A DNA stretch of 64,000 nt from Nitrospirales bacterium (GTDB lineage Bacteria; Nitrospirota; Nitrospiria; Nitrospirales; UBA8639), in the NCBI GenBank assembly GCA_965203665.1, contig OZ241905.1, positions 174,275 to 238,274 on the forward strand. Reading direction: 5' to 3'. Positions 4,364-40,938 of the stretch are shown piece after piece. Each line of letters starts with the position of its first letter. The stretch's first letter is position 1. The translations under genes and the position numbers were made by a program. The notes beneath the pieces are model-generated. The model did not search any database, was not told the DNA's origin, and saw nothing but the letters and a program-made list of their open reading frames with translations.

Positions 4364-4394
4364 TGGTCCGCGACGCGGGCCATGGATAAGATCG

Positions 4395-7228: not shown

Positions 7229-7241
7229 GTCCCGGGTGCCG

Positions 7242-8081: not shown

Positions 8082-8111
8082 AGCCGCAGAACATGCCTGC
8101 GCCATTAGATT

Positions 8112-8169: not shown

Positions 8170-8175
8170 AAACAT

Positions 8176-8604: not shown

Positions 8605-8671
8605 ACGAAACCTCCCTCTCGAAAAAGTCTGGAGGACAATCAGAAATCAACTCCTGCTTAGAAAATATCCT

Positions 8672-8989: not shown

Positions 8990-9058
8990 GCCCAGTCGAA
9001 GGGCACGAAGTAAACGAGAGGCGTCATCGTCGCCTGTCATGTTAAAAATGGAGACTGC

Positions 9059-9806: not shown

Positions 9807-10241
9807 ATGTTTGAGAATCCATCGTTGATCACCCGAATCGCCATCGGAAAGGCCGTTGGCTTCTTGATCGGCCTCGCCGGGTTTGTTTTGCTACCCTGGT
9901 TTCTGCCTGAAGCGGGCTGGTTGATCCGATGGGGGATCCTGCTTTGGTATACCACGCTGGGAGCGATCATCGGGATGTTCGGTGTGTTCACCTGGCATCC
10001 CGTTTTGAAGCTGCCCATGCCTTGGTGGGTTCGCGCTCCGGTTATTGGGGCTTGGATGAATTTCGTCTTGACGTTTTTCGCCTACGACATGTTGAAACAG
10101 GCGATGGAGACCGTATTCGGTCTTGACGGCGTCCTCAGCTCGCCCTTCTGGTTCGTGGCCGAGGGCGCCGTTGTCGGTCTCATCATCGGCTATTGCGCGA
10201 CACGCTTCGGTGGCGAGGGGGTAGAAACCGCCGGCCGGTGA
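9807..10241 (+). CDS. integral membrane protein (4 predicted TM), unknown function
   Basis: Four hydrophobic stretches. ATG 9807 is preceded by AAGGAG (9793-9798); the alternative start is 9783. Confidence 0.6.
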   Translation: MFENPSLITRIAIGKAVGFLIGLAGFVLLPWFLPEAGWLIRWGILLWYTTLGAIIGMFGVFTWHPVLKLPMPWWVRAPVIGAWMNFVLTFFAYDMLKQAMETVFGLDGVLSSPFWFVAEGAVVGLIIGYCATRFGGEGVETAGR

Positions 10242-10276
10242 AGACGCCGGTGAACGGTCAGTTGCTGCCACAGTAG

Positions 10277-10322
10277 CGGGTGCTCAAGGAAGGAAAAACC
10301 AAAGGCCGTCAACGGGTGGTTC
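10277..10322 (+). pseudogene. 46-nt fragment of a paralogue of the 8672..8989 lipoprotein gene
   Basis: 'gtgctcaaggaaggaaaaaccaaaggccgtcaacgggtggttcag' versus 8878-8923 'gtgctcaaggaagggcaaaccaaaggccggcaacgggtggtcgag'. It encodes VLKEGKTKGRQRVV and is cut off where the antitoxin gene ends. Confidence 0.45.
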
Positions 10323-10653
10323 AGGCAATTGCCTGCAAGCCCTTCTCCTGAACCAGCGTCAGAAGTTTGAGAGAGGCGCCGGCAGGATGTTTCTCTCCGC
10401 GCTCCCACTGGCTGATAAGACCCGTCGAAACGTTCAGGTAGAGAGCGAACACGGCTTGGCTCACGCGCTCGCGTTCACGGAGCGCCCGAATGTCATCCGC
10501 TTGCATCGCGCGCACCGGGGTGAGGCAAAGTTCATCGAACTTGCGCAGGGTGCGCTTATCCATGAGGCCAGCGTCGTGAAGATCGGATGCCGTCTCATGG
10601 ATTGCCCCGAGGGCGTTGCTTCGATATGTCTTTCTCATGACATGTTGCGCCAT
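10321..10653 (-). CDS. XRE-type HTH antitoxin (COG2944/YiaG-like)
   Basis: 'IRALRERERVSQAVFALYLNVSTGLISQWERGEKHPAGASLKLLTLVQEKG' is the pattern typical of this antitoxin class. The start is ATG 10653, or ATG 10638, which forms an ATGA overlap with the upstream toxin remnant. Confidence 0.7.
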   Translation of the reverse strand: MAQHVMRKTYRSNALGAIHETASDLHDAGLMDKRTLRKFDELCLTPVRAMQADDIRALRERERVSQAVFALYLNVSTGLISQWERGEKHPAGASLKLLTLVQEKGLQAIA

Positions 10654-10745
10654 TGGTCGTTGATGCGAATGGAATGGAAGCCCGAAAGCCGGCCGCTCAG
10701 TGCTTTGTATAGCATGGTTTTTGACGTTATGGCGGAGAGGGTGGG
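10635..10745 (-). pseudogene. HigB-like (plasmid-maintenance killer family) toxin remnant
   Basis: 'LSAITSKTMLYKALSGRLSGFHSIRINDQWR' matches the HigB core ('..L.G.R.G.HSIRINDQWRI.F'). However, about 20 C-terminal residues are missing, and the N-terminal part runs into tRNA-fragment/GC-rich filler. Confidence 0.45.
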
Positions 10746-10947
10746 ACATTCGAAGTCGCGCGGGGTCGCGCTCCCGCTAGGGGGCCAGGCCCCCTCGCGC
10801 CGCCGCTTCGCTTCGGTCACCCCGTGAAGGGGGCATACCCCCTTCAGAACCCCCGTTCGAATCCCACCCTCTCTCTTATTGCCTAGGGATGAGGTTTGGG
10901 CTCCATTGTGCATGATTCGGCTTTTTTCTATGGTGGCGGAGAGGGTG
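10730..10947. repeat. cluster of partial copies of the tRNA-Ser(CGA) 3' end (att-like remnants)
   Basis: 10730-10755 'tggcggagagggtggga(ca)ttcgaa' and 10934-10947 'tggcggagagggtg' are in the same orientation as 40851-40876. 10855-10876 'gttcgaatcccaccctctc' is an inverted copy. Confidence 0.6.
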
Positions 10948-19353: not shown

Positions 19354-20973
19354 ATGATGACTGTCATGTCAGGTGGATTAGGGCTTTCCGTTAATCAATT
19401 TCTTGAGTCACTGCCGGAAAACGTTCTCAGGAAATTTATAGATCCTGGTGTTCTATCGGTATTGAATGCGGTCTTTAGTGGCCGTGCAACTGGCGACGAT
19501 TTGCGGCGAGCTATGCAAATGCTCGTTAACGTTGACTTTGAACTGCTACTTGGTGAAGAGGACGGCCGAAATCTTGTATTGAAGCACATTCCAAAAAAGA
19601 AGCGCGCTGAATTTGAGAAGCGTGTCGGACGAAGCGTCGATTCGTCTCTCACAGGTAGTTGGACTGAAGCAGAAATCAGACAGATGCGTGACTTCTTCGG
19701 TCTGGTCGAAGAGCGAGCCATACAACCGCCAACGAAAGTTGAAGACATCATTCGGCCAGCATACGGCTTGTTCGACCACCAGAGGGACACCGTCGTCAGA
19801 TTGGCTCCACTGTTGGACCAAGATGAGAGAAAGGCTGTACTTCACCTTCCTACAGGTGTTGGCAAGACGCGCACCGCGATGCACATAGTGGCGAGTTCAC
19901 TGCGCGTCAACGATCCCTCGGTGGTAGTCTGGCTTGCATCTGGAAAGGAACTGCTTGAGCAGGCCGTACTCGCCTTTAGGGAAGCGTGGCACAATTTAGG
20001 GACGAGGCCACTGAAGATCGGAACAATGTTTGGCGACAAGGTTCCTGATCTTGACAATTTCAACGATGGTTTTCTAGCTGTCGGACTAGCCAAGGCCTGG
20101 GCTGTAATGTCTCGTACTGATCAAAATTGGGCAGCAAAACTTGCGTCACGCGTTCGGCTCGTAGTTTTTGATGAGGCGCATCAGAGTGTCGCCCAGACCT
20201 ACCGGCGGATCACTGAGGAGCTAACGCTTGATTTTCGATGCGCGTTGTTAGGGCTCACCGCCACCCCTGGTCGTACTTGGGCTGATATCGACAAGGATGG
20301 TGAACTCGTCGAGTTCTTTTCAGGCAACAAGGTCACGCTTAATGTCCCGGGCGACGACCCAATTGCATACTTAATCGACAACGGCTTTCTTGCCAAACCG
20401 TTCTTTCGGACTCTACTGGCGGAACCAGGTCTGAGCATTTCCGACAATGAGATCGCGCGTATCGCGGGGTTGTTGGAAATCCCGGAGGATATTGTGGCCG
20501 CCTTGTCGATGAGTGAGCAATATGTTACATCTGTGCTTGGCGCGATAGAAGAGCTCCTTGACTCGGGGCATCGGCGCCTACTCGTCTTTGCCGCTACAGT
20601 CCAACATGCCCAATTGCTAACGGCGATTCTTATTGCTCGCGATATTCGAAGCTTTTTAGTGACGGGCGTAACGCCCGAGCGGGTTAGGGATCGCGCTATA
20701 AAGACTTTCAAGTCGGAAGATGAGAAGTCGATGGTTCTCATCAACTATGGGGTATTGACTGCAGGGTTCGATGCCCCCAAGGCAAGTGCTGTGGTCATAG
20801 CCCGCCCGACACAATCTCTGGTTCTATTCAGCCAGATGGTTGGTCGCGCAATACGTGGGCCCAGGGCTGGTGGCACTGAAAAGTGCGAAGTAGTAACAGT
20901 CGTTGATCCGAGTCTGCCAGGATTCGGCGATGTAGCAGCGGCGTTTCTAAATTGGGAGGATGTATGGCGGTGA
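19354..20973 (+). CDS. SF2 DEAH-box helicase (ResIII-like); SspF-like by position
   Basis: Motif I 'LPTGVGKTRTA', II 'VVFDEAHQS', III 'GLTATPGR', VI 'QMVGRAIRG'. Confidence 0.85.
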   Translation: MMTVMSGGLGLSVNQFLESLPENVLRKFIDPGVLSVLNAVFSGRATGDDLRRAMQMLVNVDFELLLGEEDGRNLVLKHIPKKKRAEFEKRVGRSVDSSLTGSWTEAEIRQMRDFFGLVEERAIQPPTKVEDIIRPAYGLFDHQRDTVVRLAPLLDQDERKAVLHLPTGVGKTRTAMHIVASSLRVNDPSVVVWLASGKELLEQAVLAFREAWHNLGTRPLKIGTMFGDKVPDLDNFNDGFLAVGLAKAWAVMSRTDQNWAAKLASRVRLVVFDEAHQSVAQTYRRITEELTLDFRCALLGLTATPGRTWADIDKDGELVEFFSGNKVTLNVPGDDPIAYLIDNGFLAKPFFRTLLAEPGLSISDNEIARIAGLLEIPEDIVAALSMSEQYVTSVLGAIEELLDSGHRRLLVFAATVQHAQLLTAILIARDIRSFLVTGVTPERVRDRAIKTFKSEDEKSMVLINYGVLTAGFDAPKASAVVIARPTQSLVLFSQMVGRAIRGPRAGGTEKCEVVTVVDPSLPGFGDVAAAFLNWEDVWR

Positions 20974-22904
20974 CAACGATACCAGAGCAACTGAGTTTCT
21001 CGATTATCGATACCAAAATGACAATCGATTCTATGCGCGCCAGTGGATATAAATCTACAACGCATGCACTCGCTGAACTCATCGACAACTCACTTGAGGC
21101 CGGGGCAACAGCAATCGAGATTTTTGGAGTGAGCCGGCAGGAGAACAGTCCTCGAAGATTCAGGCTTACAGAACTAGCAGTCCTGGACAACGGCTCCGGG
21201 ATGGATGCAAACACTTTAAGGGGAAGTCTTCGATATGGTCACGGAACCCGCCGTGAGCGAAAAGGGATCGGTCGTTTTGGTCTCGGACTCCCCAACGCGT
21301 CGATGTCGCAAGCCAGACACGTAGATGTTTGGTCCTGGCAATCCGGTGTGACAAACGCTCTTCACACTCAACTTTCCATTGAAGACGTGGAACGAGGCGT
21401 CCGAGAAATACCTGAACCAAGTCTACAACCCATCCCAGATATTTACCTCAAATCGAGCTGCAACGGGTTTGGTGAATCCGGCACTCTCATAGTGTGGAGT
21501 AATCTCGACAGAGTCGAATGGAAGCAAGCTTCAACAACATTTCGACATACAGAGGCGCTACTAGGTCGGTTGTACAGGCGTTTTCTTGCCAAGCCATCCG
21601 AGCGACTCCACGCTGACGACCCTAGGGGAAATGAAATTGGCCAACAACGCACCATTTTGTGTGTGCCGATTTTGGATGACGGCTCGACGATCAGCGTACA
21701 ACGTAGTGACCTTGTCGAAGTGAAACCGAACGATCCTCTTTATCTTATGACCGATACTTCTTGCCCTGGGGAATTTGGTCCCGGACCTATGTTCACGGAA
21801 CTCGAAGGTAGCCCTTTTTTTGTCCCCGTAACGTACAAGGGCCAAAAATGCGATGTACGGGTTCGTGCGAGTTATGTCCGGCCTCACGCGCGCCGTTCTT
21901 CTGAGCCCGAAGCCAATTGGCCTCCTGAGTGGAGTGGCAAAGACGCCGGTCACACTCCCTGGGGAAAGCATGCCGACAATAATATGGGGGTATCGCTGGT
22001 TCGCGCGCACCGCGAAATACAACTCGATGACTCTTGGATAAGTGGTGACGATACGAGAGAGCGGTGGTGGACCGTCGAAGTCGACTTTCCGACCGCACTC
22101 GATGAAGTGTTCGGTGTCACCAACAACAAGCAGGGCACGATGACTTTCCAGCGACTAGCACGATACGACTGGCGACGAGAAGCACTTACCGGTGAAGAGT
22201 CGCCCCAGGATGTCCGCCGTCGTATGGAGGCGGATGGCGATCATCGGGTTTACCTATTGGATGTTCGTAGACAGATTACAAAGGCTATCGAGTTGATGCG
22301 ACCCAGAGTCAGAGAGACCAAGAAATCTCGGCATGATCCCCATGAAATAGACGAAGACAAGAAAGCTGACGAAAGGGCAACGGCCGCCATCAAACGCCGA
22401 ATCGAGGAAGGCGAGCGCGGAGAGTCTGATCGAGCCGGTGAATTTGGTACTGAGCAAGAACACAAGGAAGCGCACATTCAATCTCTCGTCGATAAACATC
22501 ATCTTGACCAGGGTGACGCGCTTCGGCGAATCGACGAAACGATGCGGGCTGGAAGCCGAGTGCGGTGGATTCAATCGGCGCAATCCAGCGCCGCCTTCTT
22601 CGATATCGACTCGCTACCAAACGTCATTCAAGTCTCGCTTAACACGAACCATCCTGTACATTCGCACCTGTACGATATCATGCATCCCGAGGTGGACGAG
22701 CTAACGGAAGACGAAATTCGGGATCGGCTGGCAAAAGCCGCCGCCGCATTCCGCATACTTATTTACTCATGGGCTCGCTATGAGGAAGAACAAACCGACC
22801 GTGAGCGTCGCCGCGTGCGTGATGCGCGCGTGGAATGGGGTAAGTACGCAGAGGAATTCTTCGATGAGGACGATGGTTCGCCTCCTCCTACCGACTTGGT
22901 GTAG
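20964..22904 (+). CDS. GHKL (HATPase_c_3/MORC-like) ATPase; SspG-like by position
   Basis: N-box 'ELIDNSLEAGA', G1 'LDNGSGMD', G2 'GRFGLGLPNAS'. ATG 20964 follows GGGAGGA and overlaps the helicase stop by 10 nt (ATGGCGGTGA). Confidence 0.85.
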   Translation: MAVTTIPEQLSFSIIDTKMTIDSMRASGYKSTTHALAELIDNSLEAGATAIEIFGVSRQENSPRRFRLTELAVLDNGSGMDANTLRGSLRYGHGTRRERKGIGRFGLGLPNASMSQARHVDVWSWQSGVTNALHTQLSIEDVERGVREIPEPSLQPIPDIYLKSSCNGFGESGTLIVWSNLDRVEWKQASTTFRHTEALLGRLYRRFLAKPSERLHADDPRGNEIGQQRTILCVPILDDGSTISVQRSDLVEVKPNDPLYLMTDTSCPGEFGPGPMFTELEGSPFFVPVTYKGQKCDVRVRASYVRPHARRSSEPEANWPPEWSGKDAGHTPWGKHADNNMGVSLVRAHREIQLDDSWISGDDTRERWWTVEVDFPTALDEVFGVTNNKQGTMTFQRLARYDWRREALTGEESPQDVRRRMEADGDHRVYLLDVRRQITKAIELMRPRVRETKKSRHDPHEIDEDKKADERATAAIKRRIEEGERGESDRAGEFGTEQEHKEAHIQSLVDKHHLDQGDALRRIDETMRAGSRVRWIQSAQSSAAFFDIDSLPNVIQVSLNTNHPVHSHLYDIMHPEVDELTEDEIRDRLAKAAAAFRILIYSWARYEEEQTDRERRRVRDARVEWGKYAEEFFDEDDGSPPPTDLV

Positions 22905-22910
22905 AGTGCC

Positions 22911-23819
22911 GTGGACGAAGTAAGTGGCAGCCAAGGAGACCGTATTCGTGCTCTTTTCGAGAAAGCTACAGATGGAGTCACAATTATCGCGCCGTTCATT
23001 AAAGTCGATGCGTTGCGGTCGCTGCTTAAAGTAATTCCGTCGCACGCGCACATTCGTTGTGTTACGCGTTGGTTTCCTCAAGAAGTCGCCGCTGGGGTGT
23101 CTGATCCAGAAATTTTTGAAGAACTGGAGGAACGCGGCAATTCGAACCTCTCACTAGTTGACAGGCTACACGCTAAGCTCTTCATTGTCGGTGAACGCTG
23201 TCTCGCTGGTTCAGCAAATGTGACTCTCGCAGGACTAGGCGAAGGAGTTGACAGGAATAACATCGAGGTTCTCGTTGAAACAACCACTGCTGATCCTGGA
23301 ATTTCAGCAACGCTCAACGAGATCTCGCAAGCGGAACGTCCCGCTACAACACTCTTAGCAGATAACGTTCGGCGTTTGGCAGACAGTATTACTGGCGAGA
23401 CGACATCAGAAATTGACCGCAATGCACTTTGGTTCCCGCGCAGTCGACGCCCTGAAGAAGCACATCGGTTCTACACCCAACCACCGAAGAAGCATGTAAG
23501 AGCCGTGGACCGCATTCTATTGGCTGATCTGGCAAGGTGTAATGTTTCACCTGGTCTTGAAGAGCAAGAATTTCGGACATTGATTCGTTCTCTTCTCGCA
23601 GCAATCCCAATTGCGAGAATCCTTCTTGACGCGACGGAAGATATGATGCTCACCCGCGCCGACTCCCACTCTTTTCTCGAAACAGTTGGGGGTGATGAGT
23701 TTTCCACCAACGATTTGTGGCTCGCATTCGTCAATTGGATGGTACATTTTTTCCCAGATCAGGTCATCAAGCAAGAAATCGCCGAGGTGGCGCTTCGACG
23801 CGCTCACCCACTTAGATAG
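22911..23819 (+). CDS. PLD-superfamily (single HKD-like motif) nuclease; SspH-like by position
   Basis: 'LHAKLFIVGERCLAGSANVTLAGL' (HxK....GSxN). GTG start 6 nt after the GHKL stop. Confidence 0.75.
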   Translation: MDEVSGSQGDRIRALFEKATDGVTIIAPFIKVDALRSLLKVIPSHAHIRCVTRWFPQEVAAGVSDPEIFEELEERGNSNLSLVDRLHAKLFIVGERCLAGSANVTLAGLGEGVDRNNIEVLVETTTADPGISATLNEISQAERPATTLLADNVRRLADSITGETTSEIDRNALWFPRSRRPEEAHRFYTQPPKKHVRAVDRILLADLARCNVSPGLEEQEFRTLIRSLLAAIPIARILLDATEDMMLTRADSHSFLETVGGDEFSTNDLWLAFVNWMVHFFPDQVIKQEIAEVALRRAHPLR

Positions 23820-24732: not shown

Positions 24733-27700
24733 TCATATCTTATTGATGGATCGCATGCGTGCCAATGCTTTGTTGATGGGCGGATCTGTCACGCCTCCGG
24801 GTATGATGGGCACATCATCGTCGTCTAAGGCGATTATATCAGGATCGTTTTCACCAATCTGCCAAGCCTGACGGGTTTCGAGTTGCCTTTTGGCAATCGC
24901 CAATTCAGGGGAAATTAGCTGAGGGCTTGGACTCATCTGAGCCGGTGCGAGAAAAAAACAACCCGTCTCCTGATAGGCTGTGATGAAATTGTCAACACCC
25001 TTAGAAGAGTTTGGTGACACTCGAATCACTCTCGACACAATTGAAAAGGTCTTTCCCTCGTTTTCCAACTGTCGAAGGTTTGGCCCGATGATTACCGCAT
25101 ACTTTGCATGGTTACGCTGAGATAGCCCGGCGATGATTGCGACTCGGATTGCCTCGTCTTTATCTTCATCGCCCCAGCGATTTTTCCACGCACGAAAAAT
25201 GGCTTGGCCAGCCTCTTCATCTTCGAATGCTATACCAAGTACGGGAGGTACTTCTTGGCCATAGGCGTACAGCGTGGCTCGCCACTTAGCTTGCTCCCAT
25301 AAAGGTATATCTATAGGAGATAGAACGCGACGATCTGTATGCTTCCACCGTTTCCTGTCAAGCGCCTCTTTAGAGGGGGGGGCAGTTCCAAACTTAGGGG
25401 ATTCCATCGGATTGCCTGGGTCTGCAGGTTTCACCGTGCGCCAAGGTCTATCTCGAAGTACGGCATAGCTCTCATTGGCGGGATCTAGCCAATCGATCAG
25501 GCGTATCGGAGGCGTTTCACCATAGACATTAAAGTTTAGGGTAAGAGTGTCCCCGAGTGTTATGGCGCGAGAGAAACCGCATTCCTGAATGGCCATTTTC
25601 TCGATCCAAGTATGCGCGTCCCGTATCAACAGCATCCGAACAACTATTTGCTCAAGGCTACCTTCGAGCCAATTCATGTAGGCCCGCCGTTCATCGGCGG
25701 TCGTGAATCTCAGGTTAGCTGGATGGACGATCTCGGCACGGCCACTGTCGTCATTATCGGGGAAACGGAGTGTCGGCACGTCCGTCGATTGCTGGGATGG
25801 ACTTAGAACAATCGTTAGACACTCTCGATAGGGCAACACGTCGCGCTCATCACTTGTTGCTAGAAAGGCCTCCAGGGCACCAAGGAGAGATTCGGCAATG
25901 CTGATAGAAATCGTATTATTGGGCGTTTCAACCACGAGTTCAGATCCCAGAATCTTCGACTTCAGAAGACTTGTCGGTCCATCTGCCAACATCGGTTTAG
26001 GAGGAATGTGTTTGGCCACGGGATGGTCTTGCAACGACTCAAAAAGGGTCTGAACGGCATTCGAGTCTTCAATAGCTGGGATAGACTCTTCGTCACGCAG
26101 ATGCTGCTCGTGGCCAAGAGCGAACAGCACCGCCGTCCTGGCTGAAAACAACTCTAGTTGTTCCAGCGTATCAGGCAAACGTTCCACGCATGGAAGTGCC
26201 TCATATGGAAGGTTCAAAAAGTGAATGCCTAGCACAAGTTCCTGATGCCACAGTTCTTCGGCATACGAATTTTGTTCCTCCTCTGACAGTTTCAGCTGAG
26301 AAGCAATACCGTTTGCAAGGGTTATTGCACTCAGCACATGAGGGACACGGCCAAGCTGTAGTTCGATCCAGACGAGGCGTTTAGTGGCGATCAGTGCCTG
26401 AGGGACAAACTTTCCTTCTTCGTTGAATACAGCTAGGTTGCGTTCAACAGCCGCCAATGCTTTGTTTCTGGCAGCCCAGAGAAGACCCACATTCTCATAA
26501 GCGCAACTGCTTCCAATAAGCACCGCGATCAGCTTTGTGCGATATTCATCTTTGATCAACAATTCTTCGGCTTGGCCGAACCATCGGATCGCCTCATAAT
26601 ATTTCTCTTGTCTCAGCTTTTGGAAGCCACGCTGAGAAGATGCTTGGCCTGCTGCACCGTCGCTACGCCGCTGTCGGATTACGTCGACGAGTTTTTCGTA
26701 AAGAGAGTCGAAAGCAGGACTGCTGATACGTTCCCCGAGTTCAGTCACGATGTCAAAAAGCTGCTCTATAGGATAAGTACCCAAAGGAGCAGCCTCATTG
26801 ACAATCTGAGCTAGATCAGCCCAGCAAGAATCCAACTGGTCGGATAGTTGGGCTTGAGCAGACTGCGTAATTCTCATGTACACGAGTCCAGTGCGAGCCT
26901 GGAGGGCATTGTTCAGGCGTAGGGGGTCGGAAGCTATAGCCTCCAGCATCTCAACCAAGCGCTGCCTGCGAGAATCAATTTTGGCGTCTTGAGGGTCAAG
27001 CCGTCCTGCAAATACTGATGTCGTCAGAAGCTGCCAGAGCCTTAGAAGGAATTCAACTTCGCATGCTTGGACTGAACCTTCAACACGCTGTTCAACCTCT
27101 TCGTAGAATTGATTAAACATGGAATAGTCTTCGTACCACCAGTAGGCTGTCCAAGCACGATTGTAGGCGATACGTAGTTGCTGCGGTCTGTAGTCGACAG
27201 ACCGTGCTAGTCGTTCCGCGTGTACAAAACGGCTTTCTACCTCATTTCTGGCTCGCTCGAGGCCTCTAGCTAGGAGTGCCGTGCGTAGACAGTCCTCGAC
27301 CAACTGATAGCGCGCACCTTGGTAACATGATGGGTCGGCGACTTGCTGGTCTAGTTCTTCCAGTTCCAAAAGCCGCTCAGCGTCGCGAGGACCGAGCCGG
27401 TTTCTCTTTTCGCTTTGGAAGCCTTCAACACCCAAGGTGGCTGCGGCAAGCTCTAGGTGGTTGGCGTCGTAGACCTTTTCAACGATCCAGGCGCGGTCGA
27501 TAATATGTACGGGAATCTTTGCCAACTTGGAGAGCGCATCTTCTTGAGTTGCACGTACCTTGTCGCTGACAAATTGATTGGTGAAGAAATAGATACGTTT
27601 GTAGTCGCGGCCAGTGGATAATATGCTATGAACGTCGGCTTTAAGCTTAGATTTCCACTCCTTCTTTGCGCTGAAGGCGAAGGCCCACCGCTCCGCTCCA

Positions 27701-28038
27701 GCCGATGGAGTGCCTATCCACCAACGCTCTGCGATCTCCTCGGCTACTGGATATGTTTCAGTATCAACTTTGCTATCGCCACCTCCAGTGGGGCCTGTTT
27801 GAACGCGAAGATTGGGGCATATCTCTTTTTCGGCCAGCTTTCGACAGAAATGCTCGAACTCGTATTCACCTTTACGACTCGTGAGTGTTTCAAGATAGTA
27901 TTCGAACACCTGCTTCGAGATCCGGGGGACATCATCAACTTGAGTGTCTGAGAAAAGATCCGGATGGCGAGCCCGCATGAACTCGCTAGGACTGAGCATG
28001 TTCTTCTGAAATAGAGTCTGATCGGTCGTCTTACTCAT
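24733..28038 (-). CDS. 1101-aa protein: Mrr-like PD-(D/E)xK nuclease N-domain plus ~850-aa helical-repeat region
   Basis: N-terminus 'GEYEFEHFCRKLAEKEICPNLRVQTGPTGGGDSKVDTETY...WAFAFSAKKEW' fits an E / D / (S/Q)xK nuclease-core arrangement. The remainder is alpha-helical, TPR-like, with no Walker A motif. Confidence 0.8.
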   Translation of the reverse strand: MSKTTDQTLFQKNMLSPSEFMRARHPDLFSDTQVDDVPRISKQVFEYYLETLTSRKGEYEFEHFCRKLAEKEICPNLRVQTGPTGGGDSKVDTETYPVAEEIAERWWIGTPSAGAERWAFAFSAKKEWKSKLKADVHSILSTGRDYKRIYFFTNQFVSDKVRATQEDALSKLAKIPVHIIDRAWIVEKVYDANHLELAAATLGVEGFQSEKRNRLGPRDAERLLELEELDQQVADPSCYQGARYQLVEDCLRTALLARGLERARNEVESRFVHAERLARSVDYRPQQLRIAYNRAWTAYWWYEDYSMFNQFYEEVEQRVEGSVQACEVEFLLRLWQLLTTSVFAGRLDPQDAKIDSRRQRLVEMLEAIASDPLRLNNALQARTGLVYMRITQSAQAQLSDQLDSCWADLAQIVNEAAPLGTYPIEQLFDIVTELGERISSPAFDSLYEKLVDVIRQRRSDGAAGQASSQRGFQKLRQEKYYEAIRWFGQAEELLIKDEYRTKLIAVLIGSSCAYENVGLLWAARNKALAAVERNLAVFNEEGKFVPQALIATKRLVWIELQLGRVPHVLSAITLANGIASQLKLSEEEQNSYAEELWHQELVLGIHFLNLPYEALPCVERLPDTLEQLELFSARTAVLFALGHEQHLRDEESIPAIEDSNAVQTLFESLQDHPVAKHIPPKPMLADGPTSLLKSKILGSELVVETPNNTISISIAESLLGALEAFLATSDERDVLPYRECLTIVLSPSQQSTDVPTLRFPDNDDSGRAEIVHPANLRFTTADERRAYMNWLEGSLEQIVVRMLLIRDAHTWIEKMAIQECGFSRAITLGDTLTLNFNVYGETPPIRLIDWLDPANESYAVLRDRPWRTVKPADPGNPMESPKFGTAPPSKEALDRKRWKHTDRRVLSPIDIPLWEQAKWRATLYAYGQEVPPVLGIAFEDEEAGQAIFRAWKNRWGDEDKDEAIRVAIIAGLSQRNHAKYAVIIGPNLRQLENEGKTFSIVSRVIRVSPNSSKGVDNFITAYQETGCFFLAPAQMSPSPQLISPELAIAKRQLETRQAWQIGENDPDIIALDDDDVPIIPGGVTDPPINKALARMRSINKI

Positions 28039-28429
28039 CGCGATAAAATGGTGGTTTGAGAACTAACGAGCGCCCTATTGAAGTGTGGTACGGTAAGCAT
28101 AATAACATTCTGAGGATATAAGCCCAACATCCGGAATGTCTATTTTTGACGACTGGAAGGTGGCAACGAGTGACCTTTTCCCTAAATTTGCTCCAAGTCG
28201 AAAGTGAGGAAGTGGTCGAATTGAGGGGTCCCCGGAAGGACCCGCACTACTCTTATAAAGCCTCATGATCTCACTAACTCCTTACGCTTGACTTGGCTCT
28301 CAAGGGAACTACATTGTAGAGAAAGGCTCTGCGCAATGCCCTCCGAATCCTATTCCAGAAAAGCTGCCGGTGAAGGACTCAATATTCATGAGACCCGTGC
28401 ATAGAGCTGACAATCTGAAAGGAAAGAAC

Positions 28430-29863
28430 ATGGGAATACGTATCCAACCATGCGAAATCGATGTGCCCGCAGAGGCTCCTTTCAAGAACGACCTGCTAGA
28501 TCGGAAGGAGCCTGTAGAGGTTCTGACTCGCTTGGTGAGTTCCCTGGAAGGACCATGTGTTCTGGCTGTCGATGCCGCGTGGGGGAACGGCAAAACCACA
28601 TTTCTAAACATGTGGGCTCAGTACCTGCGCAACCAGGCATTTCCAATTGTCAAGTTCAATGCTTGGGAAACAGACTTCTCGGGCGATCCCTTTGTCGCGC
28701 TCTCAAAGGAACTCACACGTGGTCTCCAAGAATACACAAACGGGTCGATGACGCAGCAAATCGAGGACGGGGCGAAAAAAGTGCTGCAAGAGACCCTGCC
28801 AATTCTGACGCGACTCGGCACCGCGGTCATTCCAGGGGTGGGACCAGAAGTCAGTAAGGTCATTGAGTCCTATGTCTCATCATACGTAGGGGCAAAAGAG
28901 TCTGTCCGAAAATTTAGGGACACATTACAGGAAACGGCAAAAAAGGTATCAAAAGCCAAAGGTGACAAGCCGGTCGTCGTGATGATCGACGAACTGGACA
29001 GGTGCCGCCCGTCTTATGCGGTCGAGCTCCTTGAAGTAGCCAAGCATCTGTTCGCTGTGGATCATATTGTCTTCGTGCTGGCGGTCAATCGTTCTGAACT
29101 CGCGCATTCCATCAAAGCCCTATATGGCGGGAGCTTTGATGCCCAAGGATACTTGCGCCGGTTTTTTGATTTAGACTTCCGGCTTCCGGCACCTGGTCGG
29201 ACTGCCCTCATCAACCACTTACTCATGACGACGAAAATCAACGACTACTTTAAGCAGGAACAAGATTCGGCGGCAGAGAGGGACTATGAACTTGTCAGAA
29301 AATGGTTGATTTACTTTTTTGATGATCCTGACCTCAGTCTGCGAAGCATTGCCCAGGCCATCCACCGACTAGGATTGGTATTCGCATCGTTGCGGAGCGA
29401 CCAGCAGACTTTTGCGAGAATGGCCGCTGTATGTCTGATCATAAGGACCATAGACGAAGATTTGTATCACCAGTTCGCCCAAGGTGAGGTGTCGGATCAC
29501 AATGTTGTTGCAAAGTTATTCAGCGGACCTGGGGCAAGAGCTCTACAACACGAGAAGGACGGGCATCTATTTGAAATTGCGGTCATTTCGGCCAAGCTGG
29601 AAGGAAAACAAATGACAGAGGAAACGAGTAGTTCAGAACTCTTGCGACATTATAGTGAGCTTGTTGGTTCCGATGAACTTTCGAAGTTAAAAATTCTGGA
29701 ACCACTTCAAAGGCCCCCACTGCAACCAACCGGCTCTGATTGTTCGGAACTTGAGCATGCGAAAACAATCATCTTCAGCAGGCGCTTTGGCGACATGCCA
29801 GGATTCAGAGTAGCAGTTCAGCGTCTCGAACTGTTTTCCCCCGATCTTATCGATGATCGTTGA
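28430..29863 (+). CDS. KAP-family P-loop NTPase
   Basis: 'VLAVDAAWGNGKTTFLNMW','KFNAWETDFSGDP','VVVMIDELDRCRPSYAVELLE','VFVLAVNRSEL'. Alternative starts are GTG 28370 and ATG 28388. Confidence 0.85.
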   Translation: MGIRIQPCEIDVPAEAPFKNDLLDRKEPVEVLTRLVSSLEGPCVLAVDAAWGNGKTTFLNMWAQYLRNQAFPIVKFNAWETDFSGDPFVALSKELTRGLQEYTNGSMTQQIEDGAKKVLQETLPILTRLGTAVIPGVGPEVSKVIESYVSSYVGAKESVRKFRDTLQETAKKVSKAKGDKPVVVMIDELDRCRPSYAVELLEVAKHLFAVDHIVFVLAVNRSELAHSIKALYGGSFDAQGYLRRFFDLDFRLPAPGRTALINHLLMTTKINDYFKQEQDSAAERDYELVRKWLIYFFDDPDLSLRSIAQAIHRLGLVFASLRSDQQTFARMAAVCLIIRTIDEDLYHQFAQGEVSDHNVVAKLFSGPGARALQHEKDGHLFEIAVISAKLEGKQMTEETSSSELLRHYSELVGSDELSKLKILEPLQRPPLQPTGSDCSELEHAKTIIFSRRFGDMPGFRVAVQRLELFSPDLIDDR

Positions 29864-29916
29864 CGACACCAAAATGCCACAGAATCTAGTTTTGAAAATG
29901 GGGAGCTTGGGACAAT

Positions 29917-30654
29917 ATGGGCTTTAAGTCATGGAATAGCTATAGTCATTTTTCTTGGGAAGTCACACACAGCAACCGCTATATCTATAGGGATGATGAG
30001 AAGGACTTTCTGGCGAATGTCTTGGAAACAAGCCAGTCTCGGGCGACGACCGTTGGTTCTGGCAGTGTCTTCTGGAGGGCACAGCTAGGATGCAACTGGC
30101 GGCCCATAATTCAAGATGGTGAAGAAGTAGGGGAAGAACCTGAACCGTTTTCCCCTCAGAGAATGAAGCCGGTTTCATTTGGAGCTTTTGAAGGCAGAGT
30201 CAATCCCAAAGGAATTCCCTGCCTCTACCTTGCCACAAAGAAAGAAACAGCCATGTCCGAAGTGCGGCCATGGCTTGAGTCATATATCTCGGTTGGTCAG
30301 TTTCAGACGGTAAAGGAGTTAACGCTGATAAATTGTTCAGTGCATCCGCCCAATGGATTGACTATCTATTTTGAAGAGCCAGACGAACAGAAAAAGGAGA
30401 AGGCGGTTTGGGAAGACATTGACCGGGCTTTTTCTCGACCCGTTACTGTGAGTGACACTTTATCGGACTATGTTCCGACGCAAATACTGGCTGAGCTGTT
30501 CAAAAATAATGGGTTCGATGGCGTCTATTACAGGAGTGCGCTATCACATGGCTTGAACGTTGCCCTGTTCGATATGAATGCTGCTAAAATCATTAACTGC
30601 TTTTTGCATAAAGTGGAAAAAATCCAGTTTGCGTTTGGGGAGCCTTTCCTTTGA
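29917..30654 (+). CDS. RES-domain protein (putative NAD+-targeting toxin/effector)
   Basis: 'FWRAQ', 'EGRVNPKGIPCLYLATKKETAMSEV' (R, E) and 'YVPTQILAELFKNNGFDGVYYRSALSHGLNVALFD' (S). The gene starts 53 nt after the KAP gene. Confidence 0.8.
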   Translation: MGFKSWNSYSHFSWEVTHSNRYIYRDDEKDFLANVLETSQSRATTVGSGSVFWRAQLGCNWRPIIQDGEEVGEEPEPFSPQRMKPVSFGAFEGRVNPKGIPCLYLATKKETAMSEVRPWLESYISVGQFQTVKELTLINCSVHPPNGLTIYFEEPDEQKKEKAVWEDIDRAFSRPVTVSDTLSDYVPTQILAELFKNNGFDGVYYRSALSHGLNVALFDMNAAKIINCFLHKVEKIQFAFGEPFL

Positions 30655-30856
30655 TCTATCCGCTAGTCCTACTTTCTTCAGAAGGATGAGGGCACTCAAA
30701 GCCCCTAAGTGACCATACCAAAAGTTAAGTCAGTTGGCCGCCAATCATCGCGCATAATGCGAATGTCATCGTAACCAAACTCCCGGCAAATAAAGCGATG
30801 AAGGACAAGGCGGTTTTGGAGAAGAGAGGTTGCGACCAGGCGACGACGTGGGGGCA

Positions 30857-31198
30857 TCAGCGGGGCTCAGGCAGCATGAGTTTCATGATTTCGCGGACAA
30901 TACCCTCTCTGACCTCTGGTTTGAGATGGGCGACTGATCTCTCCATGATACCGACATTCGCCGTAAATAATCTGGCGGGCCTGACGTAGCTCGTTTTGAT
31001 CAACTGGCCGCTAGTAAAACTGCTTTGCTCTATTTTTATGGCGCGTTGGTCATAGTACGGTTGGCTGGTAATTTGGCATAAGATAAAGTCGTCTTGCCCG
31101 GCTTCGGCAAGTATTAGTGCGGGTCTCAATTTCTGTTGGCTTAAATCAGAGAACGGGAAACGGACAAGCACAACGTCTCCTACTGAAAATTTTGCCAT
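30857..31198 (-). CDS. mazF: MazF/PemK-family toxin
   Basis: 'GDVVLVRFPFSDLSQQKLRPALIL...ILCQITS...SYVRPARLFT' fits the PemK fold pattern. Confidence 0.85.
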   Translation of the reverse strand: MAKFSVGDVVLVRFPFSDLSQQKLRPALILAEAGQDDFILCQITSQPYYDQRAIKIEQSSFTSGQLIKTSYVRPARLFTANVGIMERSVAHLKPEVREGIVREIMKLMLPEPR

Positions 31199-31377
31199 GC
31201 CCGATCTTCCTCCGCCGTTTTCCAGTCAGCCGCCAGACTGTTTTCGCTGAGATGAGCGCATTCGCCGGCATTTGATACTGCCTCTTGATCTTTAAACCGT
31301 TGTTTGACAAACAGAAAAAAATCGTAGACTTCCTGTTGCGCCGCTTCCGGCAAGACAGACAGATCGATCGATTTCAT
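31180..31377 (-). CDS. DUF2281-like antitoxin
   Basis: 'LPEAAQQEVYDFFLFVKQRF' and a C-terminal 'ADWKTAEEDRAWQNF'. It overlaps mazF by 19 nt. Confidence 0.65.
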   Translation of the reverse strand: MKSIDLSVLPEAAQQEVYDFFLFVKQRFKDQEAVSNAGECAHLSENSLAADWKTAEEDRAWQNFQ

Positions 31378-31473: not shown

Positions 31474-31977
31474 TCATGCATCTTCCAACCAAGGTAATCG
31501 GCTTTGAAAAATTTCTAAAATTTCTTTGGCACAATCTTGAGACACATCGTTCAATACATAGCCCTTAAAGAGATGGCCGTGAGATTGTTTCATGGCATAT
31601 AGTGCCTGTTTGAATTTGGTACGATCATTTTCAGATAGACATAGTATATGTTCACGTTCAGCGAAATCTAAATCATTCATAAACTCTTTTGTTGTCTCAA
31701 AAACGGCTGATTGTGCATTCTTATAAACATGTTGCTTGCCATCCCAATGAGAACTTCCACCCATAGACGTTCCATATTTCGTTTTATAAGTAACAGGTCG
31801 ATCAGTCGTTTGTTGAGCAACAGCTATTTCCTGTAATCGATTACGGTATTCTTGGAAAAGTTGCCGTACAGAGTTTCTTGTCTTTCGTTGTTTGTTTTTC
31901 CTCTTTACCCAATCAATGATTTTATATGCTGCCCCGAGCAGAATAAGAAGATGAGAAACAAATTCAAGAATCGCCAT
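31474..31977 (-). CDS. hypothetical protein with N-terminal TM anchor (167 aa)
   Basis: 'ILEFVSHLLILLGAAYKIIDWV' TM helix followed by a Lys/Arg stretch. The ORF is AT-rich and flanked by REP elements on both sides. Confidence 0.55.
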   Translation of the reverse strand: MAILEFVSHLLILLGAAYKIIDWVKRKNKQRKTRNSVRQLFQEYRNRLQEIAVAQQTTDRPVTYKTKYGTSMGGSSHWDGKQHVYKNAQSAVFETTKEFMNDLDFAEREHILCLSENDRTKFKQALYAMKQSHGHLFKGYVLNDVSQDCAKEILEIFQSRLPWLEDA

Positions 31978-32005: not shown

Positions 32006-32037
32006 GTCGGGTTACGCCTTCAGCTAACCCGCCCTAC
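32006..32037. repeat. REP-like palindrome, family A
   Basis: 'GTCGGGTTACGCCTTCAGCTAACCCGCCCTAC'. It supplies the last codons and the stop of the 32020..32925 ORF ('AVGRVS*'). Confidence 0.65.
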
Positions 32038-32925
32038 GGCTTTCTGCATCTGATGGTGTTTGTTAACGAGATAAGCAGCGAACGAGGCGCAGGCACCGAA
32101 CATGAATACAGCCTCGTCCAAGCCGACATCTGAGGAGTCTTTGAATACCAGCGAATGACGGACACCCTCTTCGGCATTAGTATATGCATAAATTTTTTCA
32201 AATCCCGTCTTGAGCTGCCTATTTGTGAGTAGCCCCTTGTTCTCAAGGTTTTTCAGTGCCTCACCAAGTGTTTTTGATTTTGGAGCGATTTTGCGAGCGA
32301 CAGATTCAACCGCTTCGATGCTGGACTCAACCGAATCTGCATATTGCTGCGCTTTGAAGCGTACCGCCGCTTGCCTCAAATGGGTTGCTGCGCCTTCCAT
32401 ACCACCCTCGCGGAGCGTTTCAATGGCCCGCTTCGTTGCTTCGCCTTGCTCTTGGCTGGCGCGCGGCACGATAGTTGGAACGTTGTCTATGTTTGCAACA
32501 AAGTAGGCGATTGGTGATTTATCAAATGCGTCCATCAGATATTGCCCCAATCTCTCTGAGCACTTATCATGTCGCAGGATGAATTCTATAAAGGTCAACA
32601 CTTCATGGTATTCACCATTCCTTATTTGTTCGTGACAGAATCTTATGTCGCCTTGATATGTGTGGGATTCGATCTCATCATGCCATTTTCCAAGAATCTC
32701 AAATTGGTACAAAAACAGGATGGAGCCTAAATCCCAATCCGTATAGCCGTCTATAGGATCCTCATCATATGTCGAATTTATTGCCTCCTGAATACAGCGC
32801 CACACTCTCCGCCTGAAGTCGTCCGGGATGCTGTCTGTTTGCATGGATTCTGGTAGCGGAGATTTTCCTTCACGTTGAGCGAACGTCAATTTGTAGAATG
32901 CATCATCAGCTTTGTGAACCATCAT
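32020..32925 (-). CDS. AbiJ-like abortive-infection protein (AbiJ-NTD4-like N-terminus, Abi_C/HEPN-like C-terminus)
   Basis: N-terminus 'FAQREGKSPLPESMQTDSIPDDFRRRVWRCI' fits the AbiJ N-terminal pattern (F.qR.g......Q.....LRN.lWN). C-terminus 'SVESSIEAVESVARKI...YAYTNAEEGVRHS...EAVFMFGACASF' resembles the Abi_C/HEPN pattern with G(I/V)RH. Confidence 0.65.
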   Translation of the reverse strand: MMVHKADDAFYKLTFAQREGKSPLPESMQTDSIPDDFRRRVWRCIQEAINSTYDEDPIDGYTDWDLGSILFLYQFEILGKWHDEIESHTYQGDIRFCHEQIRNGEYHEVLTFIEFILRHDKCSERLGQYLMDAFDKSPIAYFVANIDNVPTIVPRASQEQGEATKRAIETLREGGMEGAATHLRQAAVRFKAQQYADSVESSIEAVESVARKIAPKSKTLGEALKNLENKGLLTNRQLKTGFEKIYAYTNAEEGVRHSLVFKDSSDVGLDEAVFMFGACASFAAYLVNKHHQMQKAVGRVS

Positions 32926-33287: not shown

Positions 33288-34193
33288 TTACTCCTTGGAT
33301 GGTGGTAATTCCGGTAGGATGCAAGCAGCGTCAACATCATTTCCCGTTAAATTTCCAACAATTTCGGCTGCCACTGTTGCGCTACTCATGTACGCCGTAT
33401 ATTCGTCTGGTACAGATTCGCGAGCCAGCTTCATGACCCGGTTCTGCACAGCAGCATCATTCCAGGCAGCGGATTTAGCCACCGCTGTTGTAAAGGCAAG
33501 TTCCAATTTGCGCACTTTATCCAAGTTTGCATTTAACTCCGAGATTGGGTTGCTACCGACAAATTTTCCACCGACATAGACACCTTGACTAAGGCCGATA
33601 AGCATCAGATAGGAGTTGTCAATTGAAAAAGACCCTAAAGATTCCGCCGCGATAACACCTTTGTATAAAAGTGAAATTCCTACAACCACTGAAAAAGCTA
33701 CTGCTTGGAATCTCGCAACTTCGAACCCCTGATCAGAAGTCAAAAGATCACTAAACTTTGGCATATACTCAGATGAAGTTCGCGTAAAATCGTTTTTGAT
33801 CCAGCGTTTTTTCTTGGCCCAAGCCCAATTCTCTCCAGTCACCCGAGAACGAACCATGTTGGCTGCCCTACCCAGGCCGGCACCGCCAGCCGCAACACCC
33901 AACAACCAGAGTATGGAGTCGTTTATAGGAACTAGCTTGCCTTCTTTTATGACCCAATAAATTGAAATCCAAAGCACGATCAAGGTGAAAAAAAAGACCT
34001 GAGTTTTCGACAGACTAGCCCGACCGGTAGGTTCGGCGGTTGTTTTTAACGGATTGGCAGTTAGTTTATGCCCCCATCGGGGTTTTGCCGCGTTGGCTGC
34101 TAACAAGTAGAAAAAAATGACTGCTGCGGTAGCTACTATGGTAGCCATTATTTCAGAGGGAATGTTAAATGACATCGCCTCTTTGTGCTCCAC
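33288..34193 (-). CDS. multi-pass membrane protein (301 aa), unknown function
   Basis: At least four hydrophobic helices ('IMATIVATAAVIFFYLLA','VFFFTLIVLWISIYWVI','ILWLLGVAAGGAGLG','FQAVAFSVVVGISLLY') and a soluble C-terminal ~90 aa. Confidence 0.65.
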   Translation of the reverse strand: MEHKEAMSFNIPSEIMATIVATAAVIFFYLLAANAAKPRWGHKLTANPLKTTAEPTGRASLSKTQVFFFTLIVLWISIYWVIKEGKLVPINDSILWLLGVAAGGAGLGRAANMVRSRVTGENWAWAKKKRWIKNDFTRTSSEYMPKFSDLLTSDQGFEVARFQAVAFSVVVGISLLYKGVIAAESLGSFSIDNSYLMLIGLSQGVYVGGKFVGSNPISELNANLDKVRKLELAFTTAVAKSAAWNDAAVQNRVMKLARESVPDEYTAYMSSATVAAEIVGNLTGNDVDAACILPELPPSKE

Positions 34194-34356: not shown

Positions 34357-34599
34357 TTAGCGATTTTCTGACCGCTGTTGGTGCCATTGCGCCCTGTACT
34401 GCGAGGGCGTCAGGTTGTTGAGAGACCGGTGAGGCCGCTCCTCATTGTATTCCTGTTTCCAAACCTGCAACTTCGCCCGCGCATCCGTCAAATCCTCGAA
34501 CCAGTGCACGTTCAAACACTCTTCCCGTAAGCGCCCGTTGAACGATTCAATGTAGGCATTATCGGTCGGCTTGCCGGGCCGCGAGAAGGCCAGCGTCAT
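34357..34599 (-). pseudogene. IS3-family transposase (OrfB) C-terminal fragment
   Basis: 'FSRPGKPTDNAYIESFNGRLREECLNVHWFEDLTDARAKLQVWKQEYNEERPHRSLNNLTP' is the end of the DDE/rve integrase core. The upstream ~300 aa are absent. Confidence 0.8.
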
Positions 34600-39487: not shown

Positions 39488-40678
39488 TCAGCCGTGCAAC
39501 GGGATAACGTCAGCACTTAGGGCCCCGGTGACGTAGTCGGACCACTGTTGCATCACTGATCGCCGCCGCTCGAACAGATCGGAGCGTTGATAGGCTCCCT
39601 CCACGCCTTTGACGACATGGGCGAGACAGGCTTCGGCCACTTCGCGTGACACGTTCACGTCCGCACACCACGACCGGAAACATGCCCTGGCAATGGCATG
39701 GGGCACGCCTTGGATCCGGTTCTCACGCACCAGTTTACTGATGGTGGCGTCGGAGAGCGGCTTGCCGCGGGCGGAAGGAAAGATGAGGGGACTGCCGCCA
39801 CCGGCTTGCTTGGCGGCTTTCAGGAGTGCCAGGGCCCGGGCGGACAAGGGCACCCGATGCTCTTTTCCCGTTTTCGTTCGGGTAGCCGGAATCACCCACA
39901 TCTTCTTGGTGACATCAATTTCAGCCCATTCCGCCAGCCGCACCTCGCCGGACCGGGTCGCGGTGAGCACTTGAAACTCAAAGCAGCGGATCGTTGACGG
40001 CGCGGCCCCGGACCGTTGGATCGTCTCCAGGGCCTGGGCGACCTGGGCATGCGGAATCGTTTTATGGGACTTCTTGAGCGTCGCCGTGTTGGGGAGGGCC
40101 GCGCGGATGCCGGCGGTCGGGTCATCGGCCCGGAGGCCCTGCGCCTTGGCCCAGTTGAACGTGCGGCTCATGCGGTGTTTCACCCGCTTCGCGGTCTCCG
40201 GTTTGCTCGTCCAAATGGGATCGAGAATCCTCATCACGTCCGCCGGGGTGATCTCGGCGACCGGCTTCTGGCCGATGACCGGGAAGGCATAGTTGCGCAG
40301 GGTCGCCCGCCAGAGCTTCGCGGACTTTCCGCCATGTTTCCATGTGGGTTCGTGTAAGGCGATCACGGTGTCCGCCGCTTCTTGGAACGTGATACCGATC
40401 GCTTGGCGTTGCCCGTGAATGAGCTTCTCGCCGTGATACCGTTTGCGGCGATTGTCCATCGCTTTCCGGCGCGCCTCTTCGATGGTGACCACCGGCCAGG
40501 GCCCCAAGCCTAAATCGTGTTGAGTTTTTTGGATCGTCAAGCGTTGCACCCAGGTTTTTCGCGTGGCGGACTTGACGAGCAGATACAGGGTGGGGATGCG
40601 ATCCCCATAGCGGCCCGGCGCGTTCAGGGTTTTAATCTTGGTGTCCGTGAGGCCGTTCATCAGGTTTGCTTTCGGCAT
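39488..40678 (-). CDS. int: tyrosine recombinase / phage-type integrase (DUF4102 N-domain)
   Basis: N-terminus 'LTDTKIKTLNAPGRYGD...LYLLVKSATRKTWVQR'. Catalytic region 'LTATRSGEVRLAEW','HRVPLS','HAIARACFRSW','LAHVV.GVEGAYQRSD' (R..HxxR..Y). I prefer start ATG 40678 over track start 40729. Confidence 0.9.
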   Translation of the reverse strand: MPKANLMNGLTDTKIKTLNAPGRYGDRIPTLYLLVKSATRKTWVQRLTIQKTQHDLGLGPWPVVTIEEARRKAMDNRRKRYHGEKLIHGQRQAIGITFQEAADTVIALHEPTWKHGGKSAKLWRATLRNYAFPVIGQKPVAEITPADVMRILDPIWTSKPETAKRVKHRMSRTFNWAKAQGLRADDPTAGIRAALPNTATLKKSHKTIPHAQVAQALETIQRSGAAPSTIRCFEFQVLTATRSGEVRLAEWAEIDVTKKMWVIPATRTKTGKEHRVPLSARALALLKAAKQAGGGSPLIFPSARGKPLSDATISKLVRENRIQGVPHAIARACFRSWCADVNVSREVAEACLAHVVKGVEGAYQRSDLFERRRSVMQQWSDYVTGALSADVIPLHG

Positions 40679-40850
40679 GTGTTCCCAAGTTTGTTCCCAA
40701 GAATTGGCCGGTGATGGGGGTGACGCCATCCCCCTGGCCCCTGGTGGGATTCATGGGAATACTACCAGAAAAAGTCAACGACATCAAGGTGTTAGGATAG
40801 AACAGGTGGGGCCGTCGTGGACCAGGAAGGACTACGTGAGACTGTGTAAA

Positions 40851-40938
40851 TGGCGGAGAGGGTGGGATTCGAACCCACGGACCGTTGCCGGTCAACGGTT
40901 TTCGAGACCGCCCGATTCGGCCACTCTCGCACCTCTCC
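40851..40938 (-). tRNA. tRNA-Ser (anticodon CGA)
   Basis: The reverse complement reads GGAGAGGTGCGAGAGTGGCCGAATCGGGCGGTCTCGAAAACCGTTGACCGGCAACGGTCCGTGGGTTCGAATCCCACCCTCTCCGCCA. It has a 7-bp acceptor stem, anticodon loop CU-CGA-AA, a long variable arm, a GGTTCGAATCC T-loop and an encoded CCA. Confidence 0.95.

Follow-up and report, generated by a model that had tools for sequence, protein, structure and literature searches.

In a 64,000-nucleotide stretch of DNA from a Nitrospirales bacterium (GenBank assembly GCA_965203665.1, contig OZ241905.1, positions 174,275 to 238,274; hereafter the window), a gene for a KAP-family nucleoside triphosphatase (NTPase) is followed on the same strand, after a gap of 53 nt, by a gene for a RES-domain protein (Table 1). 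Our analysis supports a model in which KAP and RES are probably two independent and separately mobile single-gene defence cassettes that lie head-to-tail in a genomic island at a tRNA-Ser gene. A preliminary description of this locus had proposed a dedicated two-gene module, with the NTPase as sensor or regulator of an effector that targets nicotinamide adenine dinucleotide (NAD+). That proposal fares poorly against homologous loci, where close relatives of each gene occur alone and the two essentially do not co-occur, the outcome that the description itself had named as grounds for giving the module up. Its remark that no KAP and RES system has been characterised still stands in literature searches; what has been described since is stand-alone defence by RES proteins, termed aRES, and stand-alone defence by KAP proteins.

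The model rests first on the genomic neighbourhoods of the two genes. For RES, a scan of one genome per species gave 320 loci, of which the best 80 (43–68% identity) were analysed; in approximately 66 of these the upstream sequence extends for 1.5 kb or more. The 80 loci come from Nitrospirales, Desulfobacterota, Planctomycetota, Alpha- and Gammaproteobacteria, Chloroflexota, Bacillota and other groups. For KAP, 83 loci were analysed, 47 of them with at least 800 bp of downstream sequence. A tblastn search with the KAP protein (E ≤ 1e-3), which recovers the window's own KAP gene as a positive control, detected KAP in none of the 80 RES loci. Reciprocally, the RES family profile run on six-frame translations (E ≤ 1) detected RES in none of the 83 KAP loci, and conserved KAP-RES adjacency is therefore rejected in both directions. 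Close relatives show the same separation. Downstream of KAP relatives at 89, 83, 77 and 66% identity lie other, unrelated genes, and no KAP adjoins RES relatives at 71, 70, 69 and 68% identity. The nearest homologues of both proteins are encoded in Nitrospirales metagenome-assembled genomes. In a second island, at locus L164 (ERZ25074053 ctg443075, 1081-10750), genes for a D12 methyltransferase, a SIR2_2 protein and a RES protein 71% identical to that of the window are found with a gene for a 61%-identical KAP protein 3.6 kb further on. KAP genes seem to be common in Nitrospirales-like islands, and the locus L081 has two within 13 kb.

No other partner takes the place of KAP beside RES, or of RES beside KAP. 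The 83 KAP loci share no recurrent downstream family, and in BLASTP clustering of all open reading frames (ORFs) within 4 kb of RES no neighbour family extended beyond 4 of the 80 loci. The 70 ORFs immediately upstream of RES match 44 Pfam families, each of them once; the families listed for these ORFs include no KAP and no Xre-type antitoxin. When the 32 close co-directional upstream ORFs were compared by phmmer they proved mutually unrelated, the sole exception being a pair in the related loci L006 and L007. A hidden antitoxin or other recurrent RES partner was therefore rejected, as clustering, phmmer and Pfam were all without recurrence. Fusion proteins of the Rosetta-stone type were likewise rejected as a link between the families, with no KAP-RES fusion among 10 longer proteins scanned, chosen from the best 150 RES representatives; these carry RES alone or RES with TerB_C or DUF3368. 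The rare longer members include P0391 (654 amino acids), with a C-terminal TerB_C fusion, and P0260 (432 amino acids), whose N-terminal DUF3368 region may be a gene-call fusion.

In 50 of 70 loci RES shares its orientation with the gene upstream (31 of 37 where the upstream ORF has at least 150 codons), and the two lie less than 100 nt apart in 28 loci; the upstream genes are unrelated to one another and in some cases housekeeping. In bacteria at large, about 70% of adjacent gene pairs share an orientation. Given this background, and the housekeeping genes among the upstream neighbours, the bias is not taken as meaningful and RES co-directionality is probably near the genomic norm. It also fits RES as a promoterless insert.

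The two genes are separable at the DNA level, with cassette edges that converge on the spacer. Homology to loci that carry KAP without RES starts at 28180 (L081) or 28230 (L083, and likewise in L166, discussed below) and stops at 29894 (L081) or 29887 (L083), while homology to loci that carry RES without KAP starts at 29897 (L164) or 29892 (L165). At the left edge, the non-coding leader of approximately 200 nt is better conserved than the KAP gene itself, with DNA identities of 97.5% in L166, 93% in L081 and 87.6% in L083, the last with a KAP protein just 66% identical. This leader could represent a conserved promoter or operator, or the recombination boundary of the cassette. An RNA element in leader or spacer was rejected given no Rfam match in 28000-30000 and a predicted leader fold no more stable than that of shuffled sequence (z = +1.27). 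An alternative in-frame GTG start at 28370 would give a KAP protein of 497 amino acids; however, three related loci have a TGA within the extension, and the ATG at 28430 is therefore taken as the start. The spacer is free of any ORF of at least 40 codons, as the preliminary description had stated. Both ORFs are also where it had placed them, with every motif that it quoted.

Profile searches bear out the assignment of the downstream protein to the RES family (Pfam RES, PF08808; E = 4.3e-19, residues 83–225, 69.5 bits against a cut-off of 23.2). The R, E and S signature that had been noted corresponds to R94, E115 and S207; among 25 homologues the catalytic R94 and E115 never vary, and S207 is kept in at least 90%. 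An AlphaFold2 model (predicted local distance difference test, pLDDT, 85; predicted template modelling score, pTM, 0.83) has the RES/ADP-ribosyltransferase (ART) fold, with two N-terminal helices (residues 8–42) ahead of a RES/ART-like catalytic core. The family is large, with 1684 homologues in a 90%-clustered database, the best 120 listed being 228–285 amino acids long, and approximately 998 representatives at E ≤ 1e-30 in a 50%-clustered library. Nearly all of the best 150 representatives are of approximately 240–300 amino acids and align from about residue 3.

By structure the closest proteins are RES toxins of Xre-RES toxin–antitoxin systems, a group that comprises MbcT/MbcA, ParT/ParS, NatT/NatR and Pseudomonas putida Xre-RES and that has the RES/ART-like fold and the R/E/S signature in common with the window RES. 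In a Foldseek search MbcT was the best match (1.5e-05), and ParT and P. putida RES were weaker (2e-3 to 3e-2). A link at the level of sequence was rejected, as the RES family profile reached none of the solved toxin–antitoxin-type RES proteins in a PDB sequence search at E ≤ 1, their similarity being too low for HMMER, and NCBIfam Res_ParT scored 0.007, well below its cut-off. The window RES differs from these toxins in an additional N-terminal region of approximately 80 residues. It differs also in its partner, since the Xre-RES systems have an Xre/DUF2384 antitoxin, whereas no such protein lies beside the window RES and none recurs in its 80 homologue loci. The claim that this RES is without an antitoxin has thus held up.

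By sequence, the window RES is instead close to aRES, a group of stand-alone RES proteins found in defence islands that protect E. coli and arrest growth (Osterman et al., bioRxiv 10.64898/2026.01.28.702374, January 2026). These proteins act alone, depleting NAD+ and yielding ADP-ribose-1''-phosphate (ADPR-1''-phosphate), and are defined by a length of 300–600 amino acids, no operonic link to a conserved partner, and a HEPN_RES_NTD1 domain (PF18870) N-terminal to RES at an HHsearch probability above 80% (10.64898/2026.01.28.702374). Using sequences from Table S4 of that study, BLASTP aligns the window RES with residues 116–358 of the E. coli UC5 aRES (2e-13, 27% identity), and hhalign of the RES family profile places the homology at aRES residues 133–356 (probability 99.1%, E = 1.2e-18). 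Single mutants of UC5 aRES were made at R182, R184, R215, Y225, E236 and S334, and active-site mutations are reported to abolish defence (10.64898/2026.01.28.702374). The equivalent window residues are R54, Q56, R94, Y104, E115 and S207, and so five of six are kept; the position of R184 is occupied by an invariant glutamine throughout the short RES family.

Two features of aRES are nevertheless lacking. The window RES, at 245 amino acids, is shorter than the aRES range, and it is without both the CxxC...CxxC zinc ribbon and the bulk of PF18870. The preliminary description had likened its N-terminus to the module of stand-alone HEPN/RES proteins. A HEPN_RES_NTD1 domain was rejected on the HMMER scan, with no match at E ≤ 10 for either the whole protein or its first 83 residues, a negative that rests on hmmscan where the aRES definition uses HHsearch. 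What remains of the likeness is a terminal portion. In aRES the same hmmscan places PF18870 at residues ~28–148, and window residues 12–45 align opposite aRES 133–175, so that the approximately 45 residues with the N-terminal helices correspond to just the last ~20 domain positions and a linker. In its stand-alone nature the window RES does agree with aRES, given that the KAP adjacency is not conserved elsewhere. As it departs from aRES in length and in PF18870, we describe it as a short aRES-like variant rather than a member of aRES, an assignment made from sequence comparison.

Assignment of the upstream protein to the KAP family is likewise borne out (Pfam KAP_NTPase, PF07693; E = 1.5e-37, residues 36–314, 129.9 bits against a gathering cut-off of 20). 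The Walker A motif GxxGxGKT (K55) and the Walker B motif hhhhIDELDR (D187/E188) are invariant in 26 KAP homologues, and the KAP family as a whole comprises approximately 3,400 proteins. The protein is soluble: it has no transmembrane helices and no strongly hydrophobic stretch in a 19-residue Kyte-Doolittle scan, the highest mean being 1.6 at residues ~200–219, outside the insert between the Walker motifs. An AlphaFold2 model of moderate quality (pLDDT 74.6) has a helical insert between Walker A and Walker B and an all-helical C-terminal region (residues ~315–477), and these last 163 residues have no Pfam match. Its best PDB matches, all at low TM-scores, are RdrA of RADAR and the AAA+ clamp-loader and HslU folds. 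In PADLOC the protein matches PDC-S20 (PDLC04959; 1.1e-111, protein residues 6–406 on model positions 4–412 of 464), with weaker matches to PifA (2e-22) and QatA (9e-16; 56.8 bits against a cut-off of 600). PDC-S20 is a single-gene PADLOC candidate of purely computational origin, and a literature search found no paper on it and no published experimental test. Stand-alone KAP proteins with uncharacterised C-terminal regions protect Enterococcus from phage, and this defence requires an intact Walker B motif and the C-terminal region (PMC13552941). PDC-S20, EF_KAP and its relatives (PMC13552941) and PifA of the F plasmid likewise join a KAP P-loop domain to a C-terminal region of unknown function, and PDC-S20 and the stand-alone KAP proteins are likewise single genes with variable neighbours. 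Differences are that EF_KAP is modelled with two transmembrane helices (PMC13552941), whereas the window KAP has none, and that the C-terminal region of the window KAP is unrelated to any known domain.

By analogy with the tested stand-alone KAP proteins, NTP binding or hydrolysis probably switches on the KAP protein's own helical C-terminal region, and KAP would act separately from RES. Homology to stand-alone aRES suggests that the RES protein is most plausibly an NAD+-targeting, growth-arresting anti-phage effector, and to this extent the role first proposed for it is retained. It would most likely stay inactive in uninfected cells. Once a phage infects, the enzyme would split NAD+ by phosphorolysis into nicotinamide and ADPR-1''-phosphate, the chemistry expected from aRES, and loss of NAD+ may then arrest growth such that the phage fails. 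RES has neither a sensor domain nor an antitoxin to control it, which leaves some room for control by KAP in trans.

The sole recurrence of the pair is in a related metagenome contig, L166, of which L167 is a short fragment from another assembly. KAP is 97.9% identical between window and L166 at the protein level and RES 71.7% (window 29917-30654 compared with L166 5001-5732). The DNA of the two is approximately 98–100% identical between 28236 and roughly RES codon 40, the junction included, past which identity falls to 58–93% in patches, ending near the RES stop codon. The divergent patches of the L166 RES resemble other alleles, a loop at residues ~58–80 being like that of P0041 and P0067 and the C-terminus like that of L001, and recombination has therefore replaced the 3' part of RES. 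Allele exchange of this kind would be expected of a gene engaged in an arms race, for example against phage inhibitors that bind the active site. The 90% KAP cluster has just three members, the window, L166 and L081, and L081 is without RES, while L165, with RES at the purE-side position that it occupies in L166, lacks KAP. Since window and L166 have a near-identical KAP lineage in common, they count as one event, and we read their junction as a single event inherited by two related genomes and not as independent evidence of coupling.

Several observations weigh against two independent cassettes. The neighbourhood samples represent the best ~80 matches per scan and not a complete census, and both the short RES family and PDC-S20 are known from sequence alone. 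KAP and RES are likely to be co-transcribed here, because the forward strand of the spacer holds neither a terminator-like site nor a promoter-like site that could serve RES. L166 repeats the order of KAP, 53 nt and RES between flanks unlike those of the window (IS1595 and a gene for a 232-residue protein upstream, GmrSD_C and purE downstream). Most of the aRES N-terminal region is missing from RES, which might for this reason need a sensor in trans, and the best structural match of KAP, RdrA, is an ATPase that works with a separate effector. Together these points form the case for a lineage-specific two-gene system resembling RADAR RdrA/RdrB, in which KAP senses or regulates a sensor-less RES and both are transcribed from the KAP promoter. 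The persistence of the arrangement despite exchange of the 3' two-thirds of RES, and the KAP gene in the vicinity of RES in L164, can be added to it. We nevertheless consider such a system unlikely. The absent terminator and promoter are what is expected of any promoterless gene inserted behind another gene, the conserved junction reduces to one KAP lineage with a RES-free third member, and relatives of KAP and of RES work alone. In RADAR and in Qat (QatABCD), multi-gene systems that combine a KAP-like or STAND-like ATPase with a separate effector and that the module first proposed would resemble, gene adjacency is conserved, and that of KAP and RES is not.

A more specific variant, which we hold to be decidedly unlikely, regards RES proteins of ~250 amino acids as sensor-less, miniature aRES that borrow control from whichever gene precedes them, KAP having been recruited as a trans sensor in a young, lineage-specific NAD+-depletion system. 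Were this true, the retained junction and the exchanged L166 RES allele would reflect selection that keeps the pair together as phage inhibitors drive change at the effector surface.

That the genes are inactive passengers, or serve outside defence in NAD+ metabolism or in plasmid or island addiction with the island context incidental, we judge very improbable. Many RES homologues, that of L165 included, do adjoin housekeeping genes (KdtA, decarboxylases, transporters), and PDC-S20 is a computational candidate only. Yet neither ORF is disrupted and every catalytic residue is conserved, the window is dense in defence genes, other relatives adjoin methyltransferases, a SIR2 gene, a Gabija-like ATPase/helicase pair, a PD-T4-6-type kinase or a GmrSD gene, and mosaic allele exchange is typical of arms-race genes. 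The least probable reading is a classical toxin–antitoxin system in which RES is held in check by an unrecognised antitoxin, whether a small protein, an RNA or KAP. In its favour, the characterised RES toxins (MbcT, ParT, NatT, P. putida RES) depend on an antitoxin and resemble the window RES in fold, small co-directional ORFs lie upstream in some relatives, and L177 has HTH_3 and DUF3467 genes upstream of RES and L001 a DUF3467 gene. Against it, no neighbour recurs across the 80 loci, the spacer holds no ORF, 28000-30000 gave no Rfam match, and by sequence the family is far from toxin–antitoxin-type RES and close to the antitoxin-less aRES.

With KAP and RES as independent cassettes, what is new here reduces to an uncharacterised short form of a defence family described only recently, lying beside a member of a family already listed as a PADLOC candidate. 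That two genes adjoin each other in a defence island is not in itself evidence of a shared system, and this locus illustrates why: a check of the homologues of both partners split the idea of a sensor plus NADase into two known single-gene classes. The short RES family is nonetheless widespread, with approximately 1,000 representative clusters at E ≤ 1e-30 across many bacterial phyla; aRES-like but without zinc ribbon and NTD1, it falls outside the published aRES definition, and it is antitoxin-less. If its members are active NAD+ phosphorylases, more bacteria than now estimated would rely on NAD+ depletion for defence, and how a 245-residue NADase is silenced and then triggered with neither sensor domain nor antitoxin becomes a clear question.

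The region around KAP and RES is a typical integrated defence island of approximately 27 kb at tRNA-Ser, in accord with the defence setting that had been ascribed to RES. GC content is 0.46–0.53 between 18 and 40 kb against 0.53–0.62 in 2-kb windows outside, and the integrase and tRNA-Ser genes likely mark the right border of the low-GC island. Its order is SspA and SspBCD, a helicase/HATPase/PLD trio, a protein of 1101 amino acids, KAP and RES, mazF, and an AbiJ_NTD4/PDC-S32 gene, and PADLOC matches to SspABCD and PDC-S32 fall within it.

Table 1. Features of the KAP/RES region and the surrounding island (positions within the window).
Feature	Position	Strand	Remarks
Helicase/HATPase/PLD trio	19354-23819	+	directly after SspBCD: DEAD/ResIII helicase, MORC/MzaB-like HATPase, PLD-family protein
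1101-aa ORF	24733-28038	-	intact; divergent from KAP; no Pfam, PADLOC or NCBIfam match at E ≤ 0.01
KAP leader	28236-28429	+	conserved, non-coding; sigma-70-like promoter match 28288-28315; ribosome-binding site; left edge of KAP cassette
KAP gene	28430-29863	+	ATG start; 477 aa; Pfam KAP_NTPase
KAP/RES spacer	29864-29916	+	53 nt; junction of both cassettes ~29887-29897; RES ribosome-binding site GGGGAG
RES gene	29917-30654	+	245 aa; Pfam RES
50-aa ORF	30705-30857	-	starts at mazF stop (overlap TGATG); no family match
PemK/MazF toxin gene	30857-31198	-	convergent to RES; PemK_toxin 5.3e-07
65-aa ORF	31180-31377	-	upstream of mazF, in antitoxin position; no family match
ORF flanking AbiJ_NTD4 gene	31474-31977	-	167 aa; no family match
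AbiJ_NTD4 protein gene	32020-32925	-	PADLOC candidate PDC-S32, 2.7e-48
ORF flanking AbiJ_NTD4 gene	33288-34193	-	301 aa; no family match
IS-type transposase fragment	~34357-34599		
Tyrosine integrase gene	39488-40729	-	integrase domains
tRNA-Ser	40851-40938	-	adjoins integrase

Among the neighbours, the helicase/HATPase/PLD trio gave no match at curated cut-offs and none to the PADLOC restriction components of Ssp or Dnd systems, its best matches being weak ones to PbeA, MzaB and ZacB/DrmC. It may represent an alternative restriction partner for Ssp phosphorothioation. The 1101-residue protein is a candidate uncharacterised defence protein. Downstream of RES, the convergent pair that the preliminary description had called mazEF is upheld for its toxin half, and the label 'mazE' rests on position, the 65-codon ORF being without a family match. 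The overlap of the 50-codon ORF with the mazF stop codon suggests translational coupling to mazF, and this ORF may be a gene remnant.

At the homologue loci, a PADLOC scan of 112 flanking ORFs gave matches to type II methyltransferases, a PD-T4-6-type kinase, PDC-M30B/M41B and mad6, which are scattered and do not amount to an estimate of enrichment. In the locus L082 (5990-11631) the 77%-identical KAP gene lies inside a type I restriction-modification locus, where it is followed by a gene for a 454-residue TPR protein, with fragmentary HsdM-like ORFs further upstream and HsdR downstream. An N6-methyltransferase-like ORF is also found near KAP in approximately nine other loci.

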